Assembly: GCF_003019035.1 (NCBI RefSeq)
Contig: NZ_CP027447.1
From: Escherichia coli
GTDB taxonomy: Bacteria > Pseudomonadota > Gammaproteobacteria > Enterobacterales > Enterobacteriaceae
DNA: 64,000 nt
Strand: one strand, 5' to 3'
Under the pieces are notes generated by a model, which was not told the origin of the DNA, did not search any database, and was given only the letters and a program-made list of their open reading frames with translations. Made by a program: the position numbers and the translations under genes. Below, piece by piece: positions 1-27,563 of the stretch; position 1 is the first letter of the stretch; each line of letters begins with the position of its first letter.

Positions 1-5143
<5,143 letters not shown>

Positions 5144-21956: not shown

Positions 21957-23378
21957 TTAAACAATGTCCAGCGTGCCCAGGCGGTATTTCCGCTGATAGA
22001 TAAACGAGGTGAGTACAATCGGGATGATGATGGCGATAGCCATTGCCAGCGCAAACACCTGCCAGTAGCTCGGTTGAATCGAGAGAATTCCCGGCAGGCC
22101 GCCTACGCCGATGCCATTCGCCATAACGCCGTTCAGGCCGCATAGCAATCCTGCCAGACCAGAACCAATCATCGCGCACAGCATCGGGAAGCGATATTTC
22201 AGGTTGATGCCGTACATTGCAGGCTCAGTGACCCCAAGCCAGGCGGAGATCGCGGCAGGCACGGAGATCTCGCGTTCATTGTGCTTGCGGCTGGAAATGA
22301 TAATGCCTATCACGGCGGAGCCCTGAGCGATATTCGACAGCGCAATCAGCGGCCACACTGGCGTGCCACCCATGCTTTGAATCATCTGCAAATCAATAGC
22401 AAGCGTGGTCTGGTGTACGCCGGTGATCACCAGTGGGGCGTACAGGAAGCCAAACAATGCCGCGCCAATCGGAGCAAAGCTGCCGGTCATCAGGTGACGT
22501 ACCGCAAAGGCAACGCCATCGCCAATCATGCGACCAAACGGACCAATCAGCGCATGGGCGAGGAACACCGCGAGGATCAGCGAACAGACGGGCACCACCA
22601 CCAGATAGAGGTAATCCGGCACGATGCGCTTAAGACGAGTTTCAATAACGCCCAGCGCCAGCCCGGCTAACAGTGCCGGGATGACCTGCGCCTGATAGCC
22701 CACTTTGGCGATGCTGAACATGCCAAAGTCCCATACTTCCGGCAGCTGCTGCCCGAGCAGATAAGCGTTCATCAGCTGGGGAGAAACCAGCGTTACGCCA
22801 AGCACGATACCAAGGATCGGCGTGCCGCCCATTTTTTTCACCGCTGACCAGCAAATCCCGACCGGTAGGTAGAAGAAGATCGCTTCACCGATCAACCACA
22901 GAAAATCGTAGATCGTTTGCAGGGAAGGGTACATTTGCGCCAGCGTTTGACCGTTGCTCATGGGCAAATCGCCGATCACATTGCGAAAACCGAGGATCAA
23001 ACCGCCGCTAATCAACGCGGGCAGCAACGGGAAGAAAATCTCCGCGAAATGAGAGATCAACTGCTCATGCCATTTCATATTCTGCCGGGCGGCTTTTTTT
23101 ACCTGCTCTTTATCAACCTGCGCCTGTCCGGTTGACGCTATCAGTGCTTGATAGTAATCACCCACGTTGGTGCCAATCACCACCTGAAATTGCCCGGCAT
23201 TGGTGAAACAGCCTTTCACCATGGGGAGTTGCTCAATTTCTTTCGGTCTGGCATTGGCCGGTTGGTTGAGGACAAAGCGCAGGCGAGTAATACAGTGGCT
23301 CACCGTCGCAATATTGCCGCGCCCGCCGACCAGTTCAATCAACCGATCGATATCCGTTTGGTTTATTTTGCTCATCAT
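21957..23378 (-). CDS. treB: PTS trehalose-specific EIIBC component
   Basis: EIIB cysteine motif (CITRLR) followed by polytopic EIIC domain; treBC operon context. Confidence 0.92.
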   Translation of the reverse strand: MMSKINQTDIDRLIELVGGRGNIATVSHCITRLRFVLNQPANARPKEIEQLPMVKGCFTNAGQFQVVIGTNVGDYYQALIASTGQAQVDKEQVKKAARQNMKWHEQLISHFAEIFFPLLPALISGGLILGFRNVIGDLPMSNGQTLAQMYPSLQTIYDFLWLIGEAIFFYLPVGICWSAVKKMGGTPILGIVLGVTLVSPQLMNAYLLGQQLPEVWDFGMFSIAKVGYQAQVIPALLAGLALGVIETRLKRIVPDYLYLVVVPVCSLILAVFLAHALIGPFGRMIGDGVAFAVRHLMTGSFAPIGAALFGFLYAPLVITGVHQTTLAIDLQMIQSMGGTPVWPLIALSNIAQGSAVIGIIISSRKHNEREISVPAAISAWLGVTEPAMYGINLKYRFPMLCAMIGSGLAGLLCGLNGVMANGIGVGGLPGILSIQPSYWQVFALAMAIAIIIPIVLTSFIYQRKYRLGTLDIV

Positions 23379-23496
23379 AAAGCCCCATGGCAGATGACAT
23401 TTTTGGTTGGCTGCAGAATATATTGCGCGGAAAAATTTAAAAACGGGAACGTTCCCGAAACGCAGCGAAGATCACAATTTATCGTTCAGGAAACGA

Positions 23497-24444
23497 TCAG
23501 GACAGGGTGGCGGGGATGATGATTTGTTGCGGTTCGCTGCGCCCGGTGACCTGCGCGATCAACTGGCAGGCCGCCTGGCGTCCAGCTTCGGCGTAACCGG
23601 GATCTACGGTGACGATCTCCGGATGGAGGAATTTCATTAACGGTGTATTACCGACGCTCGCCAGTTGCAAGGTGTCGATGCGTTGCTCTTGCAGGTATTT
23701 ACTTGCGCCAAGTGCCAGCGTGTCGGTTGCGCACAGTAACGCGGTAGTTTCAGGCGTAATCACTTTTGCTACGTTCTCATAGCCTTGCTTCATAGCAAGG
23801 CCTGGCAGAGCGGCAACGGGATGCAGTTTATGCGCTTTGCAGAACGCCAGGTAGGCTTCGTGACGTCGCTTACCGGTCGTCACGTCACTATGCGGCACGC
23901 CGAGATAACTGATATTACGATGTCCCTGGTCATACAGTCGTTGCATCAGGATCTTGATTGCCCCTTCGTCGTCATAACAGACCGAAGCAAAGCCTTTTGC
24001 GTCACGCGCCAGCAGAACCAGCGATGACTGCCAGTGGGCTAACATTTCTTCTGTTATGCCGGTAAAACCGAACAGCACTACGCCGTCGATATTACGCCGT
24101 TTCAGCACCCCCAAATGTTCGGCAACTAATTGTGGGGAAAACTGACTTTCCATCATGATTGGATCGTAACCTTGTTCATAGAACGCTGGCAGCATGGTTT
24201 GAACGGCGAGATTTTCTGACAACGAATCCAGACGGGTAACAATGATGGCGACCACTTTATCGCTTTGCCCACGCATAGCGCGCGCAGAGCGGGAAGGGGA
24301 AAATCCATGCTGATTCATCACTGCTTCAACACGCTCGCGCGTGCGCTGGCTCACGCCGCTTTCGTTATTCAGCACCCGGGAAACCGTAGATTTCCCCACG
24401 CCGCTTAAGCGCGCGATGTCTTTGATGGTCAGCCGATTTTGCAT
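23497..24444 (-). CDS. treR: Trehalose operon repressor (LacI family)
   Basis: N-terminal LacI-type HTH (TIKDIARLSGVGKSTVSRVLN); adjacent to treBC. Confidence 0.92.
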   Translation of the reverse strand: MQNRLTIKDIARLSGVGKSTVSRVLNNESGVSQRTRERVEAVMNQHGFSPSRSARAMRGQSDKVVAIIVTRLDSLSENLAVQTMLPAFYEQGYDPIMMESQFSPQLVAEHLGVLKRRNIDGVVLFGFTGITEEMLAHWQSSLVLLARDAKGFASVCYDDEGAIKILMQRLYDQGHRNISYLGVPHSDVTTGKRRHEAYLAFCKAHKLHPVAALPGLAMKQGYENVAKVITPETTALLCATDTLALGASKYLQEQRIDTLQLASVGNTPLMKFLHPEIVTVDPGYAEAGRQAACQLIAQVTGRSEPQQIIIPATLS

Positions 24445-24559
24445 CCTGTTGTCCCGTAACGTGTTGTTTAATTATTTGAGCCTAACTTTACCCGTGCATT
24501 CAGCAATGGGTAAAGTCTGGTTTATCGTTGGTTTAGTTGCCAGCAGGTATTATATCGCC

Positions 24560-24822
24560 ATAGATGCTACGAATATTATTGGATTCTCCTTATTATTTGC
24601 GGCGCTTTTTTCACTTACCGGAGGTTATATGGAACCTGATCCCACGCCTCTCCCTCGACGGAGATTAAAACTTTTCCGGTAAGCCCGTCTTTTCACGGCG
24701 TTACCGGATGCGTAAGGCCGTGACGTTTTAACGTCCCTGCTCAGCTTTATTACCTTCAGGTAAGGCTTCGCCACGCCTGAAGACATTTCTGTACTGTTTC
24801 AGACAGTGCGGAGGGACTCCTT
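24560..24822 (+). promoter_or_regulatory. mgtA 5' leader (Mg2+/proline-sensing leader containing mgtL)
   Basis: Long untranslated region upstream of mgtA containing the proline-rich leader ORF mgtL; the regulatory role is established for E. coli/Salmonella mgtA. Confidence 0.65.
24629..24682 (+). CDS. mgtL: mgtA leader peptide MgtL (17 aa, [17 protein letters not shown])
   Basis: Exact proline-rich leader peptide read from the sequence, about 140 nt upstream of mgtA. Confidence 0.85.
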
Positions 24823-27519
24823 ATGTTTAAAGAAATTTTTACCCGGTTCATTCGCCATTTACCTTCCCGTCTGGTTCATCGCGATCCATTGCCTGGCGCG
24901 CAGCAGACAGTGAATACGGCGGTCCCGCCGTCCTTAAGTGCGCATTGCCTGAAAATGGCGGTGATGCCCGAAGAAGAATTGTGGAAAACGTTCGACACCC
25001 ATCCGGAAGGATTAAATCAGGCGGAAGTGGAATCTGCCCGCGAACAACATGGTGAAAATAAATTACCCGCACAACAACCGTCGCCGTGGTGGGTTCATTT
25101 ATGGGTCTGCTATCGCAACCCCTTTAATATTTTACTCACCATTCTCGGCGCTATTTCTTACGCCACGGAAGATTTATTTGCCGCGGGCGTTATCGCGCTA
25201 ATGGTCGCTATTTCTACGTTGCTGAACTTTATTCAGGAAGCACGTTCCACTAAAGCGGCAGATGCCCTGAAAGCGATGGTCAGCAATACTGCGACGGTGC
25301 TGCGCGTAATTAACGACAAAGGCGAAAATGGCTGGCTGGAGATCCCGATCGACCAGCTGGTGCCCGGCGATATTATAAAACTGGCGGCAGGGGATATGAT
25401 CCCGGCAGATTTACGTATCTTGCAGGCGCGGGATCTGTTCGTCGCTCAGGCGTCGTTAACCGGTGAGTCTCTGCCCGTGGAAAAAGCAGCTACTACTCGC
25501 CAGCCGGAGCACAGCAATCCGCTGGAGTGCGACACCCTGTGTTTTATGGGCACCACCGTGGTGAGCGGCACGGCACAAGCAATGGTGATTGCCACAGGTG
25601 CCAATACCTGGTTTGGTCAACTGGCGGGGCGTGTTAGTGAGCAGGAAAGCGAGCCGAATGCCTTTCAGCAAGGGATCAGCCGCGTCAGTATGCTGCTGAT
25701 TCGCTTTATGCTGGTGATGGCTCCGGTGGTGTTGCTTATCAACGGTTATACCAAAGGCGACTGGTGGGAAGCGGCACTGTTTGCGCTTTCGGTCGCGGTA
25801 GGCTTAACGCCAGAAATGTTGCCGATGATTGTTACCTCGACGCTGGCGCGCGGCGCAGTAAAGCTGTCGAAACAGAAAGTGATCGTCAAGCATCTGGATG
25901 CCATTCAGAACTTTGGCGCAATGGATATTCTGTGCACTGATAAAACCGGCACCCTGACGCAGGACAAAATTGTGCTGGAGAATCATACCGATATCTCCGG
26001 TAAAACCAGCGAACGCGTGCTGCATAGCGCGTGGTTGAACAGTCATTACCAGACCGGGCTTAAAAACCTGCTTGATACCGCGGTGCTCGAAGGTACGGAT
26101 GAAGAGTCAGCGCGCTCGCTGGCCAGCCGTTGGCAAAAAATTGATGAGATTCCGTTTGATTTCGAGCGTCGTCGGATGTCGGTGGTTGTGGCAGAAAATA
26201 CCGAACACCATCAGCTGGTTTGCAAAGGCGCATTGCAGGAAATCCTCAATGTGTGTTCGCAGGTGCGTCACAATGGCGAGATTGTGCCGCTCGATGACAT
26301 TATGCTGCGTAAGATTAAGCGGGTTACTGATACGCTGAATCGTCAGGGGCTGCGCGTGGTTGCGGTGGCGACGAAATACCTGCCAGCGCGTGAAGGAGAT
26401 TACCAGCGGGCGGATGAATCCGACCTGATCCTCGAAGGATATATTGCTTTCCTTGATCCGCCAAAAGAGACAACTGCTCCGGCACTGAAGGCATTAAAAG
26501 CGAGTGGCATTACCGTAAAAATCCTTACTGGCGACAGTGAGTTAGTTGCAGCGAAAGTGTGCCATGAAGTGGGGCTGGACGCGGGAGAGGTGGTCATTGG
26601 TAGTGATATTGAAACGCTATCTGACGACGAACTGGCAAATCTCGCACAGCGCACCACGCTGTTTGCCCGCCTGACGCCGATGCATAAAGAACGCATCGTA
26701 ACGTTGCTGAAGCGCGAAGGGCATGTGGTTGGCTTTATGGGCGATGGTATTAATGATGCGCCCGCCTTACGCGCTGCGGATATCGGCATTTCTGTGGACG
26801 GCGCGGTAGATATTGCCCGTGAAGCGGCTGATATCATCCTACTGGAAAAAAGCCTGATGGTGCTGGAAGAGGGGGTTATTGAGGGACGTCGCACTTTCGC
26901 CAACATGCTGAAATACATCAAAATGACGGCGAGCTCTAACTTCGGTAATGTGTTCAGCGTGCTGGTGGCGAGTGCTTTCTTGCCCTTCCTGCCGATGTTG
27001 CCGCTACACTTGCTTATTCAGAACCTGCTGTACGATGTGTCACAGGTGGCGATCCCATTTGATAACGTCGACGACGAGCAAATTCAAAAGCCGCAGCGTT
27101 GGAATCCGGCGGATCTGGGGCGCTTTATGGTCTTCTTCGGACCGATCAGCTCGATTTTCGATATTCTGACGTTTTGCCTGATGTGGTGGGTATTCCATGC
27201 CAACACGCCGGAAACGCAAACGCTGTTCCAGTCGGGCTGGTTTGTGGTGGGATTACTGTCGCAAACGCTGATTGTGCATATGATCCGCACCCGTCGTGTA
27301 CCGTTTATTCAGAGCTGTGCATCGTGGCCGTTAATGATCATGACCGTGATCGTGATGATTGTCGGGATCGCATTGCCGTTTTCACCGCTGGCCAGTTATC
27401 TGCAGCTGCAGGCGCTGCCGTTAAGCTATTTCCCGTGGCTGGTTGCGATTCTGGCAGGGTATATGACGTTAACCCAGTTGGTGAAAGGGTTCTATAGCCG
27501 TCGTTACGGTTGGCAGTAA
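24823..27519 (+). CDS. mgtA: Mg2+-importing P-type ATPase, 898 aa
   Basis: P-type ATPase motifs (DKTGTLT phosphorylation site, GDGINDAPAL hinge). Confidence 0.95.
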   Translation: MFKEIFTRFIRHLPSRLVHRDPLPGAQQTVNTAVPPSLSAHCLKMAVMPEEELWKTFDTHPEGLNQAEVESAREQHGENKLPAQQPSPWWVHLWVCYRNPFNILLTILGAISYATEDLFAAGVIALMVAISTLLNFIQEARSTKAADALKAMVSNTATVLRVINDKGENGWLEIPIDQLVPGDIIKLAAGDMIPADLRILQARDLFVAQASLTGESLPVEKAATTRQPEHSNPLECDTLCFMGTTVVSGTAQAMVIATGANTWFGQLAGRVSEQESEPNAFQQGISRVSMLLIRFMLVMAPVVLLINGYTKGDWWEAALFALSVAVGLTPEMLPMIVTSTLARGAVKLSKQKVIVKHLDAIQNFGAMDILCTDKTGTLTQDKIVLENHTDISGKTSERVLHSAWLNSHYQTGLKNLLDTAVLEGTDEESARSLASRWQKIDEIPFDFERRRMSVVVAENTEHHQLVCKGALQEILNVCSQVRHNGEIVPLDDIMLRKIKRVTDTLNRQGLRVVAVATKYLPAREGDYQRADESDLILEGYIAFLDPPKETTAPALKALKASGITVKILTGDSELVAAKVCHEVGLDAGEVVIGSDIETLSDDELANLAQRTTLFARLTPMHKERIVTLLKREGHVVGFMGDGINDAPALRAADIGISVDGAVDIAREAADIILLEKSLMVLEEGVIEGRRTFANMLKYIKMTASSNFGNVFSVLVASAFLPFLPMLPLHLLIQNLLYDVSQVAIPFDNVDDEQIQKPQRWNPADLGRFMVFFGPISSIFDILTFCLMWWVFHANTPETQTLFQSGWFVVGLLSQTLIVHMIRTRRVPFIQSCASWPLMIMTVIVMIVGIALPFSPLASYLQLQALPLSYFPWLVAILAGYMTLTQLVKGFYSRRYGWQ

Positions 27520-27563
27520 GCAAGTGATGAAGCTGGCCTGAAATACTCTTTCAGGTCAGTCTG

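Follow-up and report, generated by a model that had tools for sequence, protein, structure and literature searches.

The window, i.e. the whole 64-kb stretch of Escherichia coli DNA that was analysed, contains the gene mgtA and, upstream of it, a leader with the short ORF mgtL, a candidate promoter and the treR gene. The coordinates of these elements and of the RNA structures predicted in the leader are collected in Table 1. The mgtA gene is intact; 895 of the 898 residues of its product are identical to those of the K-12 MgtA, and the protein matches the equivalog model for magnesium-translocating P-type ATPases (TIGR01524) with 1607.8 bits (cut-off, 610.75). In TreR, 314 of the 315 residues coincide with the K-12 protein. 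A separate observation concerns E. coli SMS-3-5 (NC_010498.1), where treR (positions 3098–4048 of the retrieved locus, equivalent to 23497–24447 of the window) is flagged in RefSeq as a pseudogene "missing N-terminus". This strain matches the window at 100% between 24400 and 24900, a stretch that contains the ATG of the treR ORF of the window, and the flag is either an annotation quirk or due to a defect elsewhere in that copy.

Table 1. Elements located at the treR–mgtA locus (positions in the window)
Feature	Position	Strand	Basis and remarks
treR	23497–24444	-	Intact 315-aa ORF
Substitutions relative to K-12	24455; 24487; 24540		C for T; T for G; C for T (window base first)
PhoP box GGTTTATCGTTGGTTTA	24519–24535	+	Direct repeat GGTTTA-N5-GGTTTA in place of a -35 element; same in K-12
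-10 hexamer TATTAT of the PhoP-dependent mgtA promoter (probable)	24548–24553	+	Starts 12 nt past the PhoP box and ends 7–8 nt before +1
mgtA 5' leader RNA	24560–24822	+	About 262–263 nt, from the transcription start to the base preceding the mgtA ATG
Stem-loop A	24614–24683	+	Three-way junction; Rfam consensus structure and minimum-energy fold
RF01056 match (magnesium-responsive RNA element, "Magnesium-II")	24614–24729	+	Rfam covariance model
mgtL ribosome-binding site GGAGG	24620–24624	+	5' arm of stem A; 4 nt before the ATG; invariant in 53 sequences
mgtL, 17-codon leader ORF	24629–24682	+	Translation; annotated on identical DNA
Stem-loop C, alternative ("ON") hairpin	24675–24708	+	-18.6 kcal/mol alone; excludes A and B
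Spacer CCCGUCUUUU, pyrimidine-rich	24684–24693	+	Between stems A and B; sequence and C/G profile
Stem-loop B, attenuator ("OFF") hairpin	24694–24722	+	Rfam structure and minimum-energy fold; -17.2 kcal/mol alone
Small hairpin GACGUUUUAACGUC	24722–24735	+	Directly after stem B; pairing in 53 sequences
GUCCCUG motif	24733–24739	+	Nearly invariant; predicted partner, AGGGAC of the mgtA ribosome-binding site (24812–24817)
Conserved hairpin CUUCAGGU...GCCUGAAG	24754–24782	+	3' part of the leader; RNAalifold consensus; outside the Rfam model
Conserved hairpin adjoining the mgtA ribosome-binding site	24789–24811	+	RNAalifold consensus; outside the Rfam model
mgtA ribosome-binding site GGAGGGA	24810–24816	+	Sequence; conserved in related loci
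mgtA, magnesium-translocating P-type ATPase	24823–27519	+	898 aa; gene under control of the leader

Identity of the mgtA leader

An earlier note on this DNA, made from the letters alone, had described the stretch as the mgtA leader with an intact mgtL, and had named divergence from K-12 in mgtL or in the stem-loops as the sign of a wrong reading. No such divergence was found. The alignment with E. coli K-12 MG1655 showed 100% identity over 24541–24825, with zero differences across the transcribed leader, and both mgtL and the stems are undisrupted. Three substitutions are the only differences in the treR–mgtA intergenic region, each of them upstream of the transcription start; the one at 24540 falls between the PhoP box and the -10 hexamer, and the C found there in the window is common to many of the E. 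coli genomes that match 24400–24900 at 100%.

The region 24400–24900 was found by megablast in 5,425 of 5,426 complete E. coli genomes, annotated with treR, mgtL and mgtA, and the 263-nt leader (24560–24822) in 5,424 of 5,426, with at least 99% identity in 5,267 of them. On identical DNA, RefSeq gives the label "mgtA regulatory leader peptide MgtL". Three matches to the mgtA leader region in the complete E. coli genomes lie in records labelled as plasmids. One genome (strain N50) carries a leader copy that is only 92% identical and lacks the first 41 nt. In strain 14EC001 (NZ_CP024127.1) an 18-bp tandem duplication (TTATTTGCGGCGCTTTTT) was observed in the 5' part of the leader, at about positions 204–221 of that locus (about 24593–24610 of the window), just upstream of stem A, with mgtL and the remaining leader unaltered.

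The Rfam search identified RF01056 with 125.8 bits (gathering score, 40; E = 4.3e-26), untruncated and covering model positions 1–115 of 115. It was the sole Rfam match within 23500–28500, and mgtA starts 94 nt past its end. Each feature by which the known system could be recognised here was found, save for covariation in stem C, the core of which is invariant. Hence, 24560–24822 together with its promoter can be assigned, with a probability of about 0.95, to the E. coli mgtA promoter and leader, functioning as described for K-12 and Salmonella. It is the mgtL-mgtA leader itself and not a relative of it, and as such it is already known and ordinary.

Promoter and transcription start

The position of +1 was derived from the sequence GUAAGGCCGUGA, which lies at nt 152–163 of the E. 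coli mgtA 5' region according to the methods of PMC11552253, where C175 is given as a C; this places +1 at 24561 of the window. The earlier placement of mgtL inside the mgtA 5' leader holds with these limits, 24560 being within 1 nt of the published +1 and 24822 being the base before the mgtA ATG.

The PhoP box has the form (T/G)GTTTA-N5-(T/G)GTTTA and precedes the -10 hexamer by roughly one turn of the helix, as is typical of PhoP-activated promoters. No other exact match to KGTTTANNNNNKGTTTA occurs within the 64 kb of the window, where 0.02 matches are expected by chance. When the 160 nt upstream of mgtL were searched in 52 sequences (the window and 51 related loci), a PhoP box with at most one mismatch was present in 41, usually 110–118 nt ahead of the mgtL ATG. 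In E. coli E69 and Escherichia whittamii the box lies 100 nt before this ATG, as against 110–112 nt in other Escherichia, which implies that the leader has changed by about 10 bp in its 5' part. A generic sigma-70 scan predicted no promoter at the mgtA leader, probably because the PhoP box occupies the -35 position; with a promoter that depends on an activator this is no surprise, and it does not speak against the element. For the E. coli mgtA promoter P1, binding of PhoP and Mg2+-dependent initiation have been stated (PMC11552253). As judged from the candidate PhoP site, which matches the consensus, the promoter at 24519–24553 is predicted to be PhoP-activated.

The mgtL leader ORF

Translation of 24629–24682 gives the same 17-codon peptide that the earlier note had quoted. 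It has proline at codons 3, 5, 7 and 9 and acidic residues at positions 2 and 4 (EPDP motif), and on the same DNA it is registered as WP_001387276.1 and YP_003933616.1 (K-12 b4702; mgtA is b4242). The UAA stop codon (24680–24682) lies within CCGGUAAG (24676–24683), i.e. in the 3' arm of stem A, which is shared with stem C. That translation of mgtL represses mgtA has been reported for K-12, whose sequence is identical, from toeprinting and reporter fusions (PMC11282234).

It had also been noted that the stretch carries no longer ORF. This stands in the sense that no longer ORF there is thought to be a gene, but not literally, since three longer mechanical ORFs overlap the leader, at 24341–24682 (+; 113 aa), 24564–24668 (+; 34 aa) and 24625–24786 (-; 53 aa). 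The first, with a GTG start, is a mere upstream in-frame extension of mgtL; its start precedes the promoter, and it overlaps treR, encoded on the opposite strand, at the 5' end of that gene. The second was rejected as an additional leader ORF, its ATG being absent in most relatives outside Escherichia. Like these two, the 53-aa ORF on the minus strand is not thought to be a gene.

In order to compare the leader among relatives, a set of species-representative genomes was scanned with a pattern for mgtL codons 1–9 in which the third positions were left free. The scan returned 55 loci; the pattern itself fixes these nine codons, so that conservation of this part of MgtL cannot be judged from the set. 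Fifty-two of the 55 loci belonged to the Enterobacteriaceae, including Escherichia, Salmonella, Citrobacter, Kosakonia, Leclercia, Atlantibacter, Pseudocitrobacter, Superficieibacter, Silvania, Phytobacter and Franconibacter, among others. The other three, from Nonomuraea, an Opitutaceae member and Actinacidiphila, were discarded as chance matches, since they are not from Enterobacteriaceae and the pattern enters a longer ORF in them. All 52 enterobacterial loci have an mgtL ORF of 15–17 codons with a terminal Arg and a UAA stop inside the invariant CCGGUAAG. The differences in length are of whole codons (3 or 6 nt), so that the frame is kept, and the C-terminal residues of MgtL vary freely among genera. 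An mgtA homologue lies downstream, mostly 190–200 nt after the mgtL ATG.

These data bear on whether the ORF might be a chance reading frame within a structured RNA. Very short ORFs are certainly common, and 100 ORFs of at least 20 aa overlap the region 22000–29000. Against this, mgtL has a GGAGG at the right spacing, its frame is kept through the 3- and 6-nt length changes in 52/52 loci, it is annotated in RefSeq, and toeprinting and reporter fusions have been published on the identical K-12 sequence (PMC11282234); a chance origin is hardly credible. Another explanation for its maintenance would be that MgtL works in trans as a small protein in its own right, as its conserved length and constant terminal Arg might suggest. 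This is very improbable: the C-terminal half is freely variable between genera, it is the RNA motif CCGGUAAG, required for stems A and C, that sets both the terminal Arg and the stop, and MgtL is treated as a leader peptide only in the literature on this element (PMC11552253, PMC11282234). Taken together, the sequences compared point to selection acting on mgtL translation and not on the peptide.

Structure and conservation of the leader RNA

The RNA structure predictions recovered the alternative stem-loops A, B and C, undisturbed in the window and conserved in the Enterobacteriaceae; such alternatives had been proposed as a check on the earlier description of the leader. Stems A and B are both present in the unconstrained fold of 24560–24830, whose free energy is -87.3 kcal/mol (z = -4.4 relative to shuffled sequences). 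The outer helix of stem A pairs 24614–24624 with 24673–24683 (CUUACCGGAGG with UUUCCGGUAAG) and bounds two inner hairpins (24630–24644 and 24649–24664), so that the mgtL ribosome-binding site and the entire mgtL are enclosed by this stem. The 3' arm of stem B is GUAAGGCCGUGA (24712–24723), the replacement of which, together with deletion of C175, abolishes the response to cytoplasmic Mg2+ in E. coli (PMC11552253). In stem C, the 3' arm of A, UCCGGUAA (24675–24682), is paired with the 5' arm of B, UUACCGGA (24701–24708), and an inner helix of four pairs joins 24685–24688 with 24695–24698. A generic scan predicted no intrinsic terminator in the leader, as had been described for the mgtA leader (PMC3641672).

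The effect of the ribosome position was modelled by constrained folding with a mask of the ribosome footprint. When the mask was centred on the EPDP codons, stem C was part of the best fold, whereas placing it at the stop codon gave stem B. This ribosome-position-dependent switch between B and C reproduces the published logic and is plausible in thermodynamic terms only.

Pairing was next scored in the 53 sequences. The A and B structure was 96% paired, as compared with 38–45% when the partner columns were slid by 1–3 positions. The outer helix of stem A alone was 96.4% paired, with 7 of its 11 pairs invariant and 1 showing a compensatory change, and stem B was 97.7% paired, with compensatory changes at 6 of 10 pairs. 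Stem C was 88.5% paired; its 7-bp core never varies, which represents conservation with little covariation. This invariance is to be expected, because the strand must pair with two different partners. Stem C and the small hairpin at 24722–24735 scored together gave 88.9% paired versus 22–35% for the controls slid by 1–3 positions, and the small hairpin by itself was 90% paired, with compensatory changes at 2 of 4 tested pairs. Covariation is also seen in both hairpins of the leader's 3' part, with compensatory changes at 5 of 11 pairs (24754–24782) and at 8 of 10 pairs (24789–24811).

Proposed mechanism

The earlier note had ascribed the leader to the known Mg2+/proline-responsive attenuation system, and the literature on the element agrees (PMC11552253, PMC11282234, PMC6460261, PMC3641672). 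In these papers control by PhoQ/PhoP is combined with a model of mgtL elongation in which stems A and B are opposed to stem C; ribosome drop-off at EPDP and the role of EttA were described in PMC11282234, and EF-P together with stems B and C in PMC6460261. The published mechanism has also been reviewed recently (PMC12360218, 2025). The transcribed sequence being identical to that of K-12, the experiments done in K-12 apply directly to it, and the published mechanism can be assigned to this leader with high confidence.

According to this mechanism, transcription would start at about 24560–24561, activated by PhoP bound at 24519–24535 when PhoQ senses low external Mg2+, and the leader of about 263 nt would determine whether RNA polymerase gets to mgtA. 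A ribosome would load at GGAGG and translate mgtL co-transcriptionally with the synthesis of the leader. When cytoplasmic Mg2+ is sufficient (and prolyl-tRNA, EF-P and EttA are available), this ribosome would clear M-E-P-D-P-T-P-L-P and arrive at the stop codon, within the 3' arm of stem A. There it would block the downstream pairing of CCGGUAAG, so that stem B forms (OFF) and transcription ends before mgtA; in Salmonella, Rho loads on the pyrimidine-rich flanks of stem B. At low Mg2+ or low proline the ribosome would stall or drop off at EPDP, and the 5' arm of stem A would remain either occupied or free of pairing. Stem C (24675–24708) would then form between the 3' arm of A and the 5' arm of B, precluding stem B and permitting read-through into mgtA. 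The causes given for the inefficient elongation at low Mg2+ are destabilisation of the ribosome, low prolyl-tRNA and lack of EF-P or EttA, and sensing is now attributed more to ribosome destabilisation at EPDP than to proline supply alone. By analogy with K-12, the leader of the window is expected, with high confidence, to respond to Mg2+ and proline and to undergo termination in the same way. As read from the DNA, control of mgtA is predicted to have two layers, a PhoP/PhoQ promoter and an attenuator coupled to mgtL translation.

One question is whether the ribosome is the Mg2+ sensor at all. The leader might instead be a true Mg2+ riboswitch, the RNA binding Mg2+ directly and thereby picking A and B or C, with mgtL translation dispensable for Mg2+ sensing and serving only the proline or osmotic signal. 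In Rfam the element is classed among magnesium riboswitch aptamers, A and B are formed by the full leader in the absence of a ribosome, and Mg2+-dependent folding alone sufficed to modulate Rho termination in vitro (PMC11552253, citing Hollands 2012). The Pro-rich ORF has been argued not to act as the Mg2+ sensor (PMC3641672), and the choice between direct sensing and sensing through mgtL elongation was called unsettled (PMC11552253). Later work, however, credits mgtL elongation, on account of the destabilisation at EPDP, the dependence on bL31 and the effects of EF-P and EttA (PMC11552253, PMC11282234, PMC6460261), and the in-frame ORF retained in 52/52 loci despite length changes indicates that translation is under selection. 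We therefore regard direct sensing by the RNA as unlikely and favour sensing through the elongation of mgtL.

The route by which transcription is stopped in E. coli is a second point of debate. Pyrimidine-rich Rho-loading (rut) flanks around stem B have been described for the similarly folded corA leader (PMC11552253), and by analogy we infer that the spacer CCCGUCUUUU may be a Rho-loading flank in mgtA. The OFF state of E. coli might nevertheless be reached other than via Rho, through cleavage of the leader by RNase E, through another termination route, or through decay that follows translational repression of mgtA. For E. coli mgtA, the Rho termination score in the R66S mutant of Rho was 1.0, and RNA polymerase occupancy still fell along the gene (PMC5499598, Bastet et al. 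2017); according to a review, the mechanism with Rho "may not be conserved in E. coli" (PMC12360218). In addition, degradation of the Salmonella mgtA mRNA by RNase E is the subject of a paper that appears in the reference list of PMC11552253, and the pairing predicted between GUCCCU and the mgtA ribosome-binding site (see below) could add translational control. On the other hand, the leader is without a predicted intrinsic terminator and stem B retains its pyrimidine-rich flanks, some Rho terminators may escape the block in the R66S mutant, as its authors concede (PMC5499598), and the mapping of 3' ends in E. coli places mgtA among the leaders with 3' ends at known Rho-regulated sites. A Rho terminator is still drawn for E. 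coli mgtA (PMC11282234). The need for Rho in the premature termination of E. coli mgtA is thus disputed in the literature, and R66S may simply not reveal it; an OFF state reached without Rho is a minor possibility beside Rho-dependent attenuation.

The full-leader ensemble contains one further pairing that deserves mention. The GUCCCUG motif is predicted to pair with AGGGAC in the mgtA ribosome-binding site, with base-pair probabilities of 0.83–0.85, except for one of the six pairs (0.55). Across 24 species this helix was 91.7% paired, with zero compensatory changes. Closing over the hairpins at 24754–24782 and 24789–24811, it might add a layer of translational control beyond A/B/C, which we consider a rather doubtful prospect. 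If true, such a helix might explain the drop in RNA polymerase occupancy on mgtA that is unaffected by Rho R66S in E. coli. No mention of it was found in the later papers on the mgtA leader cited above, and the primary structural papers (Cromie 2006, Park 2010, Hollands 2012) may already draw it.

Relationship to known systems

The closest known system is that of E. coli K-12 (b4702/b4242; RF01056), which shares its peptide, stems A, B and C and PhoP box with the window, likewise has treR divergent upstream and ridA downstream of mgtA, and differs by the three substitutions before the transcription start and by 3 of the 898 residues of MgtA. The Salmonella enterica mgtA leader, of 264 nt with mgtL at nt 71–124 (PMC6460261), coincides with the leader of the window in architecture, length, Pro positions 3/5/7/9, the invariant CCGGUAAG/UUACCGG switch and the position of the PhoP box, whereas its peptide is MDPEPTPLPRWR(V/I)FLFR in the two subspecies sampled and its stem B differs by compensatory changes. 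Rho-dependence, in turn, is established in Salmonella but questioned in E. coli (PMC12360218, PMC5499598).

More distant likenesses are seen in other Mg2+ transporter genes. The leader of corA in E. coli and Salmonella also has a short ORF (corL) in a stem A with a three-way junction, an OFF state (A and B) opposed to an ON state (C and D), and repression by Mg2+ (PMC11552253). It differs in the gene and the ORF, in the UUG start and single Pro of corL, and in a constitutive promoter devoid of a PhoP box (PMC11552253). The leader of the Salmonella mgtCBR operon (mgtP, mgtM) shares a 17-codon ORF rich in Pro codons, alternative stem-loops ahead of an Mg2+ transporter gene and the lack of an intrinsic terminator (PMC3641672), but its sequence is unrelated, its attenuators are in tandem and its Pro codons are consecutive, whereas those of mgtL alternate. 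Since only CorA and MgtA are listed as E. coli transporters in PMC11552253, mgtCBR is presumably absent from E. coli.

The leader accounts for the 378 bp without genes that separate treR from mgtA, and no new question arises from it. For the most part, the comparative data bear out the published model once more, through the in-frame leader ORF in 52 Enterobacteriaceae loci and the covariation in stem B and in the two downstream hairpins. The value of the finding lies only in the correct annotation of this stretch as an intact, reference-identical textbook element, which couples Mg2+ status and translation capacity to the expression of the magnesium pump.
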